DNA of 37,620 nucleotides from Nitrospirota bacterium (GCA_011052055.1 DRJW01000143.1:1-37620); one strand, 5' to 3'; counted from the first letter of the stretch, positions 3,543-9,403 are shown. Numbers and translations: made by a program. The notes: generated by a model from the letters alone, not told the origin.

Positions 3543-6008
3543 ATGAAGTTTGCGAGGAGTAGGTTAGCCAATCGCTGGCATGCAGGTGGGTTGTCACAGA
3601 TCCTTTTTATACTCCCGATCGCGCTTGTGCTCCTTGCGACTGCTTCTTTGGCCTTTGCCCAAGGCGGCGCGTCGGCGGCGCCGGTTGACTACCGGGATGT
3701 TCCCTATGTCGGGAGCCGGAATGTAATCTGGATCCTCGCCGAAGTCCATCTCCTTTTTGGCGGATTTGTTCTGGGAGTGCCGGTCTTCGCCTGGATCTGC
3801 GATGTGATCGGGACATTGACAAAAGAAGAGCGGTACAACAAGCTGGCCAATGACTTTATAGGTTTGACCCTGGCCGCTTTTGAGATGACCGCGATGCTTG
3901 GGGCCACCTTTCTCCTTTTTCTTTTAGCCCTTTATCCCAAAGTCGTAAATTACATGACGGGCATTTTTTGGCCTACCTACTACGTATATGTAATGCTTTT
4001 CGGCGCGTCCATGGTCATTCTCTACCTCTACTGGTCAGGGTTTCAGACCATGAAAAATCGTAAGGGTCTGCACCTGTTTATCGGTTTTCTGCTGAACCTT
4101 ATAGCGGTCGGTGTCATGCTCGTGCCCAACGCCTGGGCTACATTCCAGGCCAGCCCGGTGGTTCTGCCAGGGGGTATGGGCGCTTTGGAGAAGGCTTGGG
4201 CCGCAATGAACAATCCAACCTGGGGGCCGGTGAATATCCACAGGTTTATATCCAACATCGTTCTGGGCGGTTTTCTTGTCGGCGCTTATTCAGGTGTTCG
4301 TTACCTGGGGGCCCGGACACAAGAGGAGCGGGAGCACTACGACTGGATGGGATATATAGGAAACTTTATCGGGATGTTCGGCCTGCTTACGCTTCCTTTC
4401 GCCGGATACTGGCTGATGCGGGAAGTCTATATGTACAACCAGCAGATGGGGATAACCTTGATGGGTGGGTTCCTATCCTGGTTGTTCATCATTCAGGCTG
4501 TTTTGATAGGCATCCTCTTTCTTGGAGCCAATTACTACTTCTGGCTGGGTCTGGCCTATCGGACGGAAGGGGCGGAGCGGTACATGAAGCCCATACTGAT
4601 TTTGCTAACGGCCCTCTTGAGTTGCTTTATGGTGTGGCTGACGCCCCATAGCCTGGTCGCGAGCATCGCGGAGGCGCGAGCGATGGGCGGGGCGCATCAT
4701 CCTCTTTTGGGGCTCCTGGGCGTGATGTCGGCGAAGATGACTGTCGTGAACCTGATGATTCTGATTTCTTTTGTCAGCTTCCTTATGTATTGGCGCGCAG
4801 GGAGCAAGCCGACGGCCTCGTGGGCGAAGGTGGCCAACGTCCTTATTGTCATACTTTTCTTTGTGGTTATCGTAGGCGTGATCGTTATTGGAGTCTGGGG
4901 CTATTTTGTTCCAGCCATTGTCAGGATCAATGTGTTCTCCGTAACGCAGGTGCTGGCGGTTCTAACTGTACTGCTTACGGTCACTCCTCTGGTCGGGTTT
5001 ATGCTTAAGGGCGCCAAATCAACCTCAAAAATGACCTTTGGAGTAATGCCTGTGAGGTCGCAATTGGGCCTGATAGTGAATGCTGTTACGATTGTTTTCA
5101 CGATGTCATTGATGGGATACGCCCGCTCGGCTTCCCGCGTTCACTGGCATATCTACGGGGTGTTGGAAGACACCTCCCCGTATGCTTTTTCTCCCGCCCT
5201 TGGGCACGCCGGCGCCATGGCGGCGCTGGCCACATTTTTATTCTTCGCCCTGGTTGGAATTATCCTGTGGATCACTATCAGCGCTTCGCGGAGCTCCGCC
5301 TTTTCGACGCAGTATTTCTTTTTGGCTCCTTTTATCTTCTGGGCTACGACCCTTACCGGCAAGCCGGTTGAGCCGTCGTCTGGGCCGTCTGGACAGGTTG
5401 TGGAGCAACCTAAATTTATAGGAAAGGTCGCGGGGACCATTTGCGGGGTTCTACTGCTTTTTATTTGGATTTCCAATTCGGTGCCTCAGATGCAATCTCT
5501 TCCACCTAAGAAGGTAGCGTTCGATGTGTCGAATCTCAACACCAAAGCTGATCTGGTAGACGCGGGTAAAAAACTTTTCTTTGGCAAAGCTCAATGCGCG
5601 CTTTGCCATTCACTTGAACACACCGAGTCGCCACGTTGTCCTGTTATGAAAGGGCGTGGAGCCAAGCGCACGAGGGAGTATATTTTGGAGTCCATGATGC
5701 ATCCAAAGGCGGTTATCTATAAACAGTATGAAACGGCCGGGCCAGGAAAATTCTATCCGGCCCAGATGCCGGTCATCAACAAGCCGCCTATCGGCCTTTC
5801 CGATACCGAGATGCTGGCTGTCGTATCATTTATTCAAAGTTTAGGTGGCAAAGTCACGGTAGAGCCATCTGAATTAAAAGCGCTTGTAGCGGGAACTGGT
5901 AAGCTTATACCGGAAACTGCTACGGAGGAGGCTACTACAGAGGAGGCTACTACGGAGACAGCTACTACAGAGGCAACTGCTACGGAGGGTAACGGCGATG
6001 GAAATTGA
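3543..6008 (+). CDS. cytochrome bd subunit I (CydA)-like polytopic membrane protein lacking a Q-loop, fused to a C-terminal class I cytochrome c domain
   Basis: The track ORF is 3474-6008. I prefer the ATG at 3543 (GAAGGGA upstream; MKFARSRL ... signal/anchor). By-eye match to E. coli CydA:
- ILAEVHLLFGG corresponds to the H19 region.
- GFQTMKNRKGLHLFIGFLLNLIAVGVMLVPNAWATFQASP corresponds to [38 protein letters not shown].
- VNIHRFISN corresponds to the H186 region.

There are more than 12 predicted TM helices and no long hydrophilic loop. The C-terminus has CALCH plus a distal AQMP Met. Confidence 0.7.
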   Translation: MKFARSRLANRWHAGGLSQILFILPIALVLLATASLAFAQGGASAAPVDYRDVPYVGSRNVIWILAEVHLLFGGFVLGVPVFAWICDVIGTLTKEERYNKLANDFIGLTLAAFEMTAMLGATFLLFLLALYPKVVNYMTGIFWPTYYVYVMLFGASMVILYLYWSGFQTMKNRKGLHLFIGFLLNLIAVGVMLVPNAWATFQASPVVLPGGMGALEKAWAAMNNPTWGPVNIHRFISNIVLGGFLVGAYSGVRYLGARTQEEREHYDWMGYIGNFIGMFGLLTLPFAGYWLMREVYMYNQQMGITLMGGFLSWLFIIQAVLIGILFLGANYYFWLGLAYRTEGAERYMKPILILLTALLSCFMVWLTPHSLVASIAEARAMGGAHHPLLGLLGVMSAKMTVVNLMILISFVSFLMYWRAGSKPTASWAKVANVLIVILFFVVIVGVIVIGVWGYFVPAIVRINVFSVTQVLAVLTVLLTVTPLVGFMLKGAKSTSKMTFGVMPVRSQLGLIVNAVTIVFTMSLMGYARSASRVHWHIYGVLEDTSPYAFSPALGHAGAMAALATFLFFALVGIILWITISASRSSAFSTQYFFLAPFIFWATTLTGKPVEPSSGPSGQVVEQPKFIGKVAGTICGVLLLFIWISNSVPQMQSLPPKKVAFDVSNLNTKADLVDAGKKLFFGKAQCALCHSLEHTESPRCPVMKGRGAKRTREYILESMMHPKAVIYKQYETAGPGKFYPAQMPVINKPPIGLSDTEMLAVVSFIQSLGGKVTVEPSELKALVAGTGKLIPETATEEATTEEATTETATTEATATEGNGDGN
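5916..5990 (+). repeat. in-frame tandem repeat, 5 x 15 nt, encoding a Thr/Glu/Ala tail
   Basis: The units are actgctacggaggag, gctactacagaggag, gctactacggagaca, gctactacagaggca and actgctacggagggt. They translate to TATEE ATTEE ATTET ATTEA TATEG, immediately before the stop and the overlapping next start. Confidence 0.9.
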
Positions 6009-7848: not shown

Positions 7849-9403
7849 CGCGATTCCGCCAGCCGCGATTTTTATTATTGGAGCCCTTTTTGTTCCATTT
7901 CTGAAAGGAAAGGCAAAGCAGGTTACTTTGCTTGTTATTCCGCTCATTACATTTCTTGATCTTTTGCTTATGCCGGAAGGCTCATACTGGGTTATCCACT
8001 TCCTGGATTACGATATCACTTTTGGCCGAGTGGACAAACTGAGTATGGTCTTTGGATATATATTTACAATCATGTCCTTTATTTCAATCCTCTACGCTAT
8101 TCATGTAAAGGATGATATGCAACATGTGGCGGCCCTTTTATATGTGGGGAGCGCTTTAGGGGCTGTTTTTGTTGGGGATTTTCTGTCACTCTTCGTCTTT
8201 CTGGAGATAATGACGATCACTTCGACATGCATTATATGGTCACGAAGGACAGAGGCGTCTTATTCGGCAGGATTGAGATATATTCTGGTTCATATTTTTG
8301 GAGGGCTTTGCCTTCTCGCTGGTATTCTTATCCATGCGCATCAAACAGGTTCTATTGAGTTTGGGCTCATAGGATTAAATGGACTGGGATCCTATCTTAT
8401 ATTGCTGGGTTTTGGCATAAATTGCGCTTTCCCTGTACTTCATGCATGGCTCCCTGACGCTTATCCTGAGGCGTCAATTACGGGTACCATATTCGTGAGT
8501 GTCTTTACGACCAAAACAGCGGTATACGCCCTGGTAAGGTCGTATCCTGGCACTGAGGCTCTGATAGCGGTTGGGGCTCTAATGACTGTCTTCCCTATCT
8601 TTTTTGCGGTCATTGAGAATGACCTGAGGAAAGTCCTTGCCTATAGCCTGATCAACCAGGTTGGATTCATGGTGGTCGGCATTGGAATAGGCACGGAACT
8701 GTCGCTCAATGGCTCTGTTTCACACGCTTTTACCAACATACTGTTTGAGGGCTTGCTCTTTTTATGTATGGGCGCTGTTATGCATCAGACGGGAAAGATC
8801 AATGCTACGGATTTGGGGGGACTATATAAATCAATGCCCCTGACGGCCGCATTTTGCATCGTAGGCGCGGCATCCATCTCCGCTTTTCCTTTATTTAGTG
8901 GTTTTGTAAGCAAATCCATGATTATCAGCGCGTCTGGTCACGGTGGGATGACGGTTGTCTGGTTTATGTTGCTGTTTGCCTCTGCTGGCGTCTTCCATCA
9001 TGCAGGTATAAAAATCCCATTTTTTGCTTTTTTCTCTCACGACTCTGGTATAAGAACAAAGGAGCCGCCCCTTAATATGCTTATAGCCATGGGGATAGCC
9101 GCCTTTTTATGCATCTTCATAGGTGTATTTCCCGGGTCGCTATATAGTATTCTTCCTTACCCGGTTGATTTTGAGCCCTATACGGCAAGCCATGTTTTGA
9201 ATCAGGTTCAGTTACTCTTTTTCTCCGCATTGGCCTTCTGTCTCCTCATATTGGCTGGAATATATCCAGCGGAAATCAGGGCTATCAATCTCGACGCGGA
9301 TTGGTTCTATCGAAAAGGCGCCAAGGTGTTTTACTGGCTGGCTAGCAGGCGAATGCCCTGGGCCGTTTTGTTTGTCATCTCTGTGGGTTTTGTGATTTAT
9401 TAA
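7841..9403 (+). CDS. proton-conducting antiporter-like membrane subunit (NuoL/M/N-MrpD family), copy 2
   Basis: The track ORF starts at a TTG at 7817. The ATG at 7841 overlaps the upstream TAG. Motifs: FVFLEIMT (TM5 Glu), PVLHAWLPDAYPEA and FPLFSGFVSKSMI (TM12 Lys). The TM7 Lys position reads GINCAF rather than GxSKAA. Confidence 0.85.
   Translation: MTSAIPPAAIFIIGALFVPFLKGKAKQVTLLVIPLITFLDLLLMPEGSYWVIHFLDYDITFGRVDKLSMVFGYIFTIMSFISILYAIHVKDDMQHVAALLYVGSALGAVFVGDFLSLFVFLEIMTITSTCIIWSRRTEASYSAGLRYILVHIFGGLCLLAGILIHAHQTGSIEFGLIGLNGLGSYLILLGFGINCAFPVLHAWLPDAYPEASITGTIFVSVFTTKTAVYALVRSYPGTEALIAVGALMTVFPIFFAVIENDLRKVLAYSLINQVGFMVVGIGIGTELSLNGSVSHAFTNILFEGLLFLCMGAVMHQTGKINATDLGGLYKSMPLTAAFCIVGAASISAFPLFSGFVSKSMIISASGHGGMTVVWFMLLFASAGVFHHAGIKIPFFAFFSHDSGIRTKEPPLNMLIAMGIAAFLCIFIGVFPGSLYSILPYPVDFEPYTASHVLNQVQLLFFSALAFCLLILAGIYPAEIRAINLDADWFYRKGAKVFYWLASRRMPWAVLFVISVGFVIY

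Follow-up and report, generated by a model that had tools for sequence, protein, structure and literature searches.

Antiporter-like genes coupled to a bd-like oxidase gene in a Nitrospirota bacterium: a candidate ion-translocating arm

What drives antiporter-like subunits is the main open question in work on complex I and on Mrp antiporters. To our knowledge, every characterised subunit of this kind is coupled via NuoH/A/J/K-type or MrpB/C/E/F/G-type subunits. A stretch of DNA of 37,620 nucleotides from a Nitrospirota bacterium (GCA_011052055.1, DRJW01000143.1:1-37620)—hereafter the window—raises this question for a different neighbourhood: two antiporter-like genes, called D1 and D'' in the following, bracket two genes for micro-proteins of 41 and 80 amino acids (aa), and the gene directly upstream encodes a putative cytochrome bd-like oxidase. 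What might such a pair of subunits do next to an oxidase? With slightly better than even confidence, we read the D1-41-80-D'' cassette as the ion-translocating arm of the bd-like oxidase complex, which would couple redox and protonation events of the oxidase to ion translocation.

The identity of the four genes is clear. An earlier note on this DNA had described two PF00361 genes of 485 and 520 aa around a 41-aa and an 80-aa open reading frame (ORF), and ORF and Pfam analysis confirmed the description. D1 and D'' match PF00361 with E-values of 1.6e-45 and 7.5e-41 (156 and 140.7 bits against a gathering score of 21.5), so that both belong to the family. At the level of narrower models, D1 reaches 545.7 bits for NF006236 (PRK08375.1-1, putative antiporter subunit D), below the cut-off of 663, and D'' reaches 724.4 bits for the equivalog NF009310 (PRK12668.1, 'Na+/H+ antiporter subunit D'), above the cut-off of 564. 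By sequence comparison, D1 is classed as an MrpA/NuoL-class core without the lateral helix. The closest solved structures come from MBH and MBS—MbhH for D1 (6cfw_H, E = 1.2e-43) and MbsH' for D'' (6u8y_X, E = 1.5e-37).

The junctions are as tight as the note had stated. The end of the upstream 844-aa gene and the start of D1 share 11 nucleotides (5998-6008), an ATGA overlap joins D1 and the 41-aa ORF (7452-7455), a gap of 28 nucleotides (7578-7605) leads to the 80-aa ORF, and the latter overlaps D'' by 8 nucleotides (7841-7848). Shine-Dalgarno-like motifs are found before 5998 (GGAGGG), 10 nucleotides 5' of 7452 (GGAG) and before 7606 (AAGGAAGG). Since such a motif precedes 7606 and none lies ahead of 7582, where translation might otherwise begin, the third ORF probably yields the 80-aa form; alignments of its homologues also begin at this form. 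For D'', the ATG at 7841 gives 520 aa, and an alternative TTG at 7817 would give 528 aa.

The 844-aa protein carries a Pfam Cytochrom_C domain at residues 696-790 with a CxxCH motif at residue 708, and about 12 or more transmembrane (TM) segments. PF01654 matches it weakly (E = 0.048). Because its homologues carry PF01654 and a profile of 13 of them matches the CydA structures 5doq_A (E = 2e-8) and 9r2g_A (8e-8), we assign the protein by sequence similarity to the cytochrome bd superfamily, as a bd-like protein of the OR-N type. The matches to CydA cover profile positions 54-249, which correspond to the first four helices, and H92, invariant among the homologues, would be the equivalent of His19 of CydA in our reading of the motif. 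Downstream of D'', the 755-aa EB_dh protein—with CxxCH motifs at residues 161, 301 and 420—is the 'periplasm-accessible cytochrome b' of the cluster. Its gene is conserved directly after D'' in loci of the window type, and a dihaem cytochrome c gene follows it in L010, L011, L053, L095, L099 and L100 (L-numbers denote compared loci).

The pair does stand outside any nuo or mrp context, as the earlier note had put it, in that the window holds no nuo or mrp genes; the phrase misleads nonetheless, as the pair is translationally coupled to the bd-like oxidase gene. MrpB/C/E/F/G proteins are found nowhere in the 37.6 kb by tblastn, with the same queries that detect them in 57 other loci, and PF04039, PF00420, PF01899, PF04066 and PF03334 have no Pfam match among the window ORFs scanned. 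Besides PF00361, no other Nuo or Mrp family appears by Pfam in window ORFs of at least about 100 aa. The same scan gives neither NuoH, A, J and K nor the Q-module proteins NuoB/C/D/I, which sets the cluster apart from complex I.

Across genomes, the cassette is found in three settings. By far the most common is Mrp: 57 of the best 80 genome loci bear MrpC and MrpF/G markers on the same contig, nearly all of them 3.5-6 kb upstream of the cassette and on the same strand. The genes run E-F-G-(MbhD/MbhE/MnhB)-C-D-D1-41-80-D'', with a D'' of about 590 aa. The hosts belong to Desulfobacterota, Nitrospirota, Brocadiia and other groups, with Desulfocicer vacuolatum and Desulfamplus magnetovallimortis as cultured examples. 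In the second setting the cassette occupies the NuoL position of complex I. L049 (575-14926) carries it between nuoK and nuoM, with a D'' of 587 aa, in the order molybdopterin oxidoreductase, NuoD, I, A, C, H, J, K, D1-41-80-D'', NuoM, NuoN; this operon also encodes an Fe-S protein, and the hosts of the complex-I-type setting are Nitrospirota metagenome-assembled genomes (MAGs). L031 and L066 have two distant PF00361 genes behind the cassette.

The window itself represents the third setting, with the order bd-like+cytochrome c, D1, 41, 80, D'', cytochrome c/EB_dh, dihaem cytochrome c. This order was found in at least 11 distinct loci: the window, L010, L011/L099, L014, L053, L095, L096, L097, L100 and L101. 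Among them are a Gammaproteobacteria MAG (L053), the single-contig genome of Nitrospira sp. Kam-Ns4a (L095; OZ224218.1, 530863-553232)—a culture genome—and vent metagenome bins; L100 is without the 41-aa ORF. The junction between the bd-like gene and D1 is tight in all of these loci, with the overlap of 11 nucleotides recurring in L010 and L011 and 1 nucleotide in L095. In a further form, termed B2 (L104, L105, L112, L150), the bd-like gene comes after D1, a homologue of the 80-aa gene and D'', and the 41-aa ORF is missing.

A neighbour-joining tree of D'' places eight of the nine included window-type loci in one clade, sister to the D'' of Nitrospirota Mrp-type and complex-I-type loci, with L100 basal and the B2-type loci in a separate clade. 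As these eight form a single clade, the tree suggests one main capture of the cassette by the oxidase operon, which would have been followed by horizontal spread. The history of 3474-11721 is a mosaic: the bd-like protein, D1 and the EB_dh protein are closest to those of L096 (87, 92 and 79% identity), and for the 80-aa protein and D'' the nearest counterparts are in L099/L011 (74 and 83%, versus 62 and 69% for L096). The 80aa-D'' segment thus appears to have been exchanged between lineages.

An arrangement of this kind could be an artefact, from a chimeric contig or spurious micro-ORFs. A twin contig in ENA (L001; ERZ508539 NODE_313) indeed leaves the window sequence after about 12534, where its positions 14953-15938 are unrelated and carry a GGDEF gene on the opposite strand, and either a strain-level rearrangement after the core or a chimera at that point in one of the two assemblies would account for this. 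The divergence lies downstream of the block, however, and over window positions 1-12534 this independent assembly is 99.75% identical. The block order recurs in many assemblies, the single-contig Nitrospira genome included—so the note's worry about an mrp or nuo operon interrupted by assembly error falls away—and both micro-ORFs are conserved at the protein level in dozens to hundreds of genomes. We consider an artefact to be effectively refuted. The divergence of the twin contig does make it less certain that the cytochrome c and b genes further downstream are linked to the core.

If the cassette is real and recurs next to an oxidase, does it still bear what an ion pump needs? In PF00361 antiporter-like subunits, the lateral proton path consists of the TM5 Glu, the TM7 Lys, the TM8 Lys/His and the TM12 Lys/Glu. 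We placed these columns by phmmer alignment of D'' to MbsH' (6u8y_X) and MbhH (6cfw_H), and of D1 to MbhH, NuoL and MrpA. The TM5 Glu, TM7 Lys and TM12 Lys that had been noted by eye in D1 are E142 (SYELVG), K222 (GISKAAMV) and K395 (GFISKW), and H336 and K340 are kept as well. In TM8 of D1, a deletion of three residues takes out the His and the Lys is replaced by Asp250; the motif reads PTPVSALLHAVAVVK in Mrp- and complex-I-linked copies and PMPVVA---ALAVID in the window. This change follows the context of the gene. All 53 Mrp-linked and all 3 complex-I-linked copies have the TM8 Lys, against 3 of 14 oxidase-linked ones; in the other 11 it is replaced by Asp (4), Asn (6) or Gly (1)—at least three different replacements (Fisher p = 1.7e-10, a value uncorrected for shared ancestry).

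D'' keeps E122 (FLEIMT), K225 in TM8 and K358 in TM12 (GFVSKS), the first and last being the Glu and Lys named in the earlier note, and has H295, N299 and E303 in TM11. At the TM7 Lys column it has Asn194, so that the missing Lys was confirmed. This Asn is not special to the locus, because it is the norm of the D'' subfamily, bona fide Mrp operons included: 48/48 verified Mrp-linked, 3/3 complex-I-linked and 12/13 oxidase-linked copies have it, as do 83/85 of the subfamily (NF009310) sequences examined. Position 299, which we take to be the column of His338 in NuoL of E. coli, is the one that tracks the setting, all 13 oxidase-linked copies having Asn there and all 48 verified Mrp-linked ones Asp or His; at position 303, the window and L011/L099 have Glu instead of Lys. 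Hence, each copy is one residue short of the four-residue lateral path, D1 by the TM8 residue and D'' by the TM7 Lys. The idea of an asymmetric pump pair with one canonical and one modified channel holds for the asymmetry; the roles are the reverse of what was thought, with D'' normal for its subfamily and D1, with its deleted TM8 His and Asp250, the altered copy.

A second context-specific difference concerns the C-terminus of D''. An amphipathic stretch of about 80 residues and the last TM helix are present in Mrp- and complex-I-linked D'' and absent in the oxidase-linked D''. By analogy to the lateral helix and anchor of NuoL/MrpA, this extension would fix D'' to neighbouring subunits that are missing at this locus.

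Two alternatives are to be weighed against these residues. According to the first, the pair no longer pumps and would be a scaffold, or a passive conduit for proton delivery or exit that serves the bd-like oxidase after decay of the relay. The loss of ionisable central-axis residues is specific to oxidase-linked copies (the D1 TM8 Lys in 11/14, Asn at D'' 299 in 13/13), D'' is without a TM7 Lys, and one locus, L098, has lost D'' and both micro-proteins—all of which would fit decay. On the other hand, the TM5 Glu, the D1 TM7 Lys, the TM11 His/Lys and, in both subunits, the TM12 Lys are invariant in oxidase-linked copies. The cassette proteins show the same degree of conservation as the oxidase (60-92% identity), and at two central-axis positions of the window the charge is reversed, from Lys to Asp and from Lys to Glu, instead of drifting towards hydrophobic residues. 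We therefore regard a pair that has ceased to pump as quite unlikely.

The second alternative is that the cassette forms part of an ordinary Mrp antiporter, with MrpB/C/E/F/G and a further MrpD encoded elsewhere, and that its adjacency to the oxidase is incidental or co-regulatory. The Mrp operon is after all the normal home of the cassette, D'' passes the NF009310 equivalog, and our view of this genome is confined to one contig. Yet the insertion between the bd-like and EB_dh genes, with its overlapping stop and start codons, is conserved across phyla, the C-terminal extension is lost in oxidase-linked D'' and kept in Mrp-linked D'', and the residue changes are context-specific. Kam-Ns4a, moreover, is reported to encode, apart from this cassette, an Mnh/Mrp cluster that has extra nuoL/M-like genes of its own (PMC12342949), and therefore its oxidase-linked copy is an additional one. 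Taken together, we give this alternative very little credence.

The two micro-proteins turn out to be real and syntenic. The 41-aa family has 78 distinct homologues, which occupy the same position in other loci and are called by gene finders in other assemblies. Its N-terminal motif—LGHEPEPGYK here, EL.HEPVPGYR in the family consensus—precedes the single TM helix. The 80-aa protein has more than 200 close homologues (55-84% identity), and its family is found in at least 578 species-representative genomes and forms 1850 clusters at 50% identity (E <= 1e-3). The best 150 of these clusters are all stand-alone proteins of 72-168 aa, six longer ones having unrelated extensions. Among 32 aligned homologues, F7, D8, P10, L27, H37, F48, G53, F54, V61, L68, R69, E76, Y78 and Y79 are invariant; the C-terminal E.YY motif is mostly EDYYD and reads ENYYD here. 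The AlphaFold2 (AF2) model is a plain two-helix hairpin with a pLDDT of 73, and a Foldseek search of this hairpin against the PDB gave no match, which is uninformative. NCBIfam has no match for either protein, and a Pfam scan of the 32 aligned 80-aa members gave scattered noise alone (MNHE at E = 0.11 in one member).

It had been suggested that the two proteins stand in for missing NuoK/J- or MrpC-type helices. They do not, because in the commonest setting MrpC, B, E, F and G are encoded alongside them and in another NuoA, H, J and K are, and because a comparison to MrpB/C/E/F/G by hhalign gave probabilities below 2% for all. As their position between D1 and D'' is fixed in all three settings, they are rather subunits specific to the cassette—the 80-aa protein being kept even in the B2-form loci—and in the simplest reading they would be interface or assembly helices between D1 and D''. 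We found no mention of them in the literature searched.

The closest described system is TO_2 of Ca. Manganitrophaceae, which are manganese-oxidising Nitrospirota; this cluster combines a bd-like oxidase and two MrpD-like subunits with two cytochromes b, one accessible from the periplasm and one in the membrane (PMC9040806; Yu et al. 2022, which builds on Yu & Leadbetter 2020). In that paper, TO_2 is proposed to generate or dissipate motive force and is reported as restricted to Manganitrophaceae. The window agrees with the definition of TO_2 (3474-6008, 5998-7455, 7841-9403, 9454-11721 and 14591-15760): both share the bd-like+cytochrome c fusion, two PF00361 subunits, cytochrome c/EB_dh, dihaem cytochrome c and a membrane cytochrome b nearby, and both are genomic predictions only. 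In contrast to the reported restriction, clusters of the window type also occur outside Manganitrophaceae. The marine Manganitrophaceae MAG GCA_015659975.1 (L093), which is part of that paper's data, has 53% identity to the window in the bd-like protein and 39-53% in the EB_dh protein; unlike in the window, its two D genes precede the bd-like gene, and the first D is 43-46% identical to D1/Db. The general arrangement is thus already in the literature as an untested genomic prediction, and this locus is a distinct variant of it. Judged by the literature searched, what seems to be new is the three-way modularity, together with the micro-subunits and the residue changes specific to oxidase-linked copies.

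TO_2 also brings in a third alternative, namely that the same complex runs in reverse. Inward flow of H+ or Na+ would then push electrons uphill, from cytochrome c or haem b via the membrane cytochrome b to quinone, in reverse electron transport or bifurcation. Such a mode was proposed for TO_2 of Ca. Manganitrophus (PMC9040806), and hosts of such clusters are often lithoautotrophs on high-potential donors. In the window, a cytochrome b gene lies 2.1 kb downstream on the same strand, ahead of the only strong terminator, and one also follows the cluster in L093, L105 and L112. Because this gene is not in the core of window-type loci—L010, L011 and L095 do not have it behind the dihaem gene—the idea is weakened here; the twin contig diverges before it, and the window holds neither a Rieske gene nor evidence of a quinone site. 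Direction is not readable from sequence, and we consider the reverse mode unlikely, if less so than the two alternatives above.

Further relatives place the cassette between known machines. The three-MrpD Mrp (CPA3) operons (mrpE-F-G-B-C-D-D-41aa-80aa-D'') carry the orthologous cassette, with 55-84% identity in the 80-aa protein and the same TM7 Asn; compared with them, the window is without MrpB/C/E/F/G and a third D and has lost the C-terminal extension of D'' and the TM8 His/Lys of D1. Ca. Nitrospira alkalitolerans has a 'group 3 Mrp' with additional nuoL/M-like genes (PMC7784846), which may be another three-MrpD operon with the cassette. In the 'green complex I' or Complex_I_3, two MrpD-like subunits replace NuoL (cited in PMC9040806); the cassette of L049, a distal two-pump module at the NuoL position, resembles this, in contrast to the window with its lack of Nuo subunits. 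On the oxidase side, bd-like oxidases of the OR-N type (CydAA', NIDE0901-like; 'TO_1' of Nitrospirota) have about 14 helices, no quinol site, and cytochrome c and EB_dh partners (Murali et al. 2021, 10.1101/2021.01.16.426971), and the literature that we found on OR-N oxidases in Nitrospirales and Nitrospinota leaves antiporter-like partners unmentioned.

MBH and MBS of Pyrococcus furiosus (6cfw, 6u8y) are Mrp-derived modules bolted onto a redox module, as is proposed here. They differ from the window in keeping MrpB/C/E/F/G-like subunits and a NuoH/B/C/D/I-like redox arm, and MbsH' keeps its TM7 Lys. Antiporter-like subunits with non-canonical partners are also known from the CO2-uptake systems DAB (DabB-DabA) and NDH-1MS (NdhF3/D3-CupA). 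They share with the window that PF00361 proteins work outside classical complex I or Mrp; the partners in the window are cytochromes. A DAB- or Cup-type function was rejected because the partner gene is not present, with no DabA (PF10070) or CupA/B-like protein among the window ORFs scanned with Pfam.

The mechanism that we favour may be put as follows. D1-41-80-D'' would be a portable cassette that originated at the distal end of a three-D Mrp operon, where it is found by far most often. In the lineage of the window—L100 and the B2-type clade apart—it would have been captured once by the operon of a cytochrome-c-oxidising OR-N bd-like oxidase, with subsequent loss of the C-terminal lateral-helix/anchor of D'' and translational coupling to the bd-like gene. 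The cassette would dock in the membrane against the bd-like subunit, where redox and protonation events of the oxidase could be linked to translocation of H+ (or Na+) through D1 and D'', with the micro-proteins as dedicated interface or assembly helices that would join D1 to D''. The replacement of the D1 TM8 Lys by Asp, of the D'' TM11 Asp/His by Asn and, here, of Lys303 by Glu would then reflect a proton relay that is rewired for a new partner rather than lost. Forward operation, with extra charge translocated per electron on the way from cytochrome c to the terminal acceptor, would be the more probable direction.

Several observations weigh against this mechanism. The physical association of the cassette with the bd-like protein is deduced from synteny, and O2 reduction by this protein is putative. 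The cluster contains no NuoH/A/J/K- or MrpB/C/E/F/G-type element, which start the charge wave in the characterised relatives, and neutralised central-axis residues could equally mean that pumping is lost. OR-N clusters are, unlike the window, mostly devoid of antiporter-like genes: about 55 of 79 metagenome loci sampled with close homologues of the bd-like+cytochrome c protein carry none at all, so the oxidase works without them. L098 (97-6930) shows a half-cassette, with the bd-like, D1, EB_dh and dihaem genes and without the micro-proteins and D''. In the marine TO_2, finally, the second D of 604 aa is a different paralogue with 28% identity to D'', and homologues of the 41- and 80-aa proteins are missing, a Rieske gene being present. 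The length of this second D would suit a fusion of the 80-aa protein and D'' (604 being close to 80 + 520), an idea that was dropped since blastp shows no such similarity, and a search with the 80-aa homologue of the B2 type returned no Manganitrophus-named protein.

A broader formulation goes further than the ion-translocating arm, and we offer it tentatively, as a fairly doubtful proposition. D1-41-80-D'' would be a self-contained, horizontally mobile two-channel cassette for ion translocation, equipped with micro-subunits of its own, that plugs into Mrp, into complex I in place of NuoL, and into a haem-only bd-like oxidase. In the latter, it would make a true ion pump or a motive-force-driven engine of reverse electron transfer, without the NuoH/A/J/K E-channel or MrpB/C/E/F/G coupling.

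Table 1 Positions of the cassette, the surrounding operon and other features in the window
Feature	Position	Strand	Basis
844-aa polytopic membrane protein, putatively bd-like, C-terminal monohaem cytochrome c domain	3474..6008	+	Pfam, profile search
D1 (copy 1), antiporter-like subunit, 485 aa	5998..7455	+	PF00361 + PF00662
41-aa micro-protein, one TM helix	7452..7577	+	ATGA overlap with D1; 78 homologues
80-aa micro-protein (88 aa from 7582), two-helix hairpin	7606..7848	+	alignment, AF2
D'' (copy 2), antiporter-like subunit, 520 aa	7841..9403	+	PF00361, NF009310
Short G+C-rich hairpin, 6-bp stem	9414-9428	+	
755-aa protein, N- and C-terminal TM helices, three cytochrome c domains + EB_dh (haem b, NxrC/EbdC-like)	9454..11721	+	Pfam, NCBIfam
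Dihaem cytochrome c, 254 aa; closes the core that the loci share	11718..12482	+	Pfam
Dihaem cytochrome c	12592-13278	+	Pfam, NCBIfam, haem motifs
Monohaem cytochrome c	13293-13676	+	Pfam, NCBIfam, haem motifs
Unknown protein	13820-14449	+	
Cytochrome b, C-terminal CxxCH	14591-15760	+	Pfam, NCBIfam, haem motifs
Unknown protein	15738-16367	+	
Cytochrome c	16753-17883	+	Pfam, NCBIfam, haem motifs
Intrinsic-terminator-like hairpin, 12-bp stem then T run	17925..17951	+	
Cache-domain histidine kinase	997-2775	-	
Second HAMP kinase and sigma-54 activator pair	27702-31164	+	
600-aa protein, possible N2O reductase	34737-36539	+	NCBIfam, Pfam

The remaining features of the window are collected in Table 1. 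The genes from 12592 to 17883 are probably co-transcribed with the core, and their membership in the oxidase complex is uncertain; the terminator-like hairpin behind them is the likely end of the operon. The cytochrome b among them has a b6-like N-terminal half, about 7 TM segments and its CxxCH at residue 344, and its nearest NCBIfam model is an ExtP-type cytochrome b, with a score below the cut-off. In the 50 nucleotides that separate D'' from the EB_dh gene, the short hairpin may serve as an attenuator within the operon or as a site of processing, or it may have arisen by chance. Scans of the window for Rfam elements and tRNAs returned nothing. Upstream of the operon lies the divergent gene of the Cache-domain kinase, beyond which the twin contig has a sigma-54 response regulator, and the second pair of kinase and activator is found downstream. 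The 600-aa protein has as its best NCBIfam match NF052460, 'clade III lactonase-type nitrous-oxide reductase (L-NosZ)', at 615.7 bits versus a cut-off of 700, and Pfam assigns it nos_propeller and cupredoxin domains; it is possibly an unusual N2O reductase, 17 kb downstream of the oxidase operon.

The neighbourhoods of other window-type clusters differ. Directly upstream of the cluster in L011 (1-6011) are genes for a cupredoxin/multicopper-like protein, multihaem cytochromes c, an MtrB/PioB-type outer-membrane porin and a CarboxypepD_reg protein, which hints at a link to extracellular metal oxidation, and L010 likewise has CarboxypepD_reg and cytochrome c genes upstream. In Kam-Ns4a (L095, 3767-8930), a second bd-like gene (571 aa) with cytochrome c, Rieske, an ATP-synt_C-like small protein and cytochrome b lies directly upstream of the window-type cluster. 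The tandem of a bd-like gene (~30% identity), cytochrome b and the bd-like+cytochrome c gene is the commonest arrangement in metagenomes.

Relative to the idea put forward for TO_2, the comparison adds that one cassette serves three kinds of complex and contains two conserved, unannotated micro-proteins, the 80-aa family with its 1850 clusters being without a Pfam entry. The oxidase-specific substitutions and the C-terminal truncation point to concrete targets for mutagenesis, and the question is experimentally approachable because a cultured organism—the Nitrospira sp. Kam-Ns4a enrichment—carries a cluster of the window type. If the proposal is true, an antiporter pair that is driven by, or drives, a bd-like haem oxidase would be a minimal, orthogonal test case for electrostatic-wave models. 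In the broader formulation, it would mean a new way to drive antiporter-like subunits, with a haem-based cytochrome c oxidase acting as a true ion pump or as an engine of reverse electron transfer. This would bear on how lithotrophs that live on high-potential donors such as nitrite, Mn(II) and Fe(II) gain extra energy or low-potential reductant.

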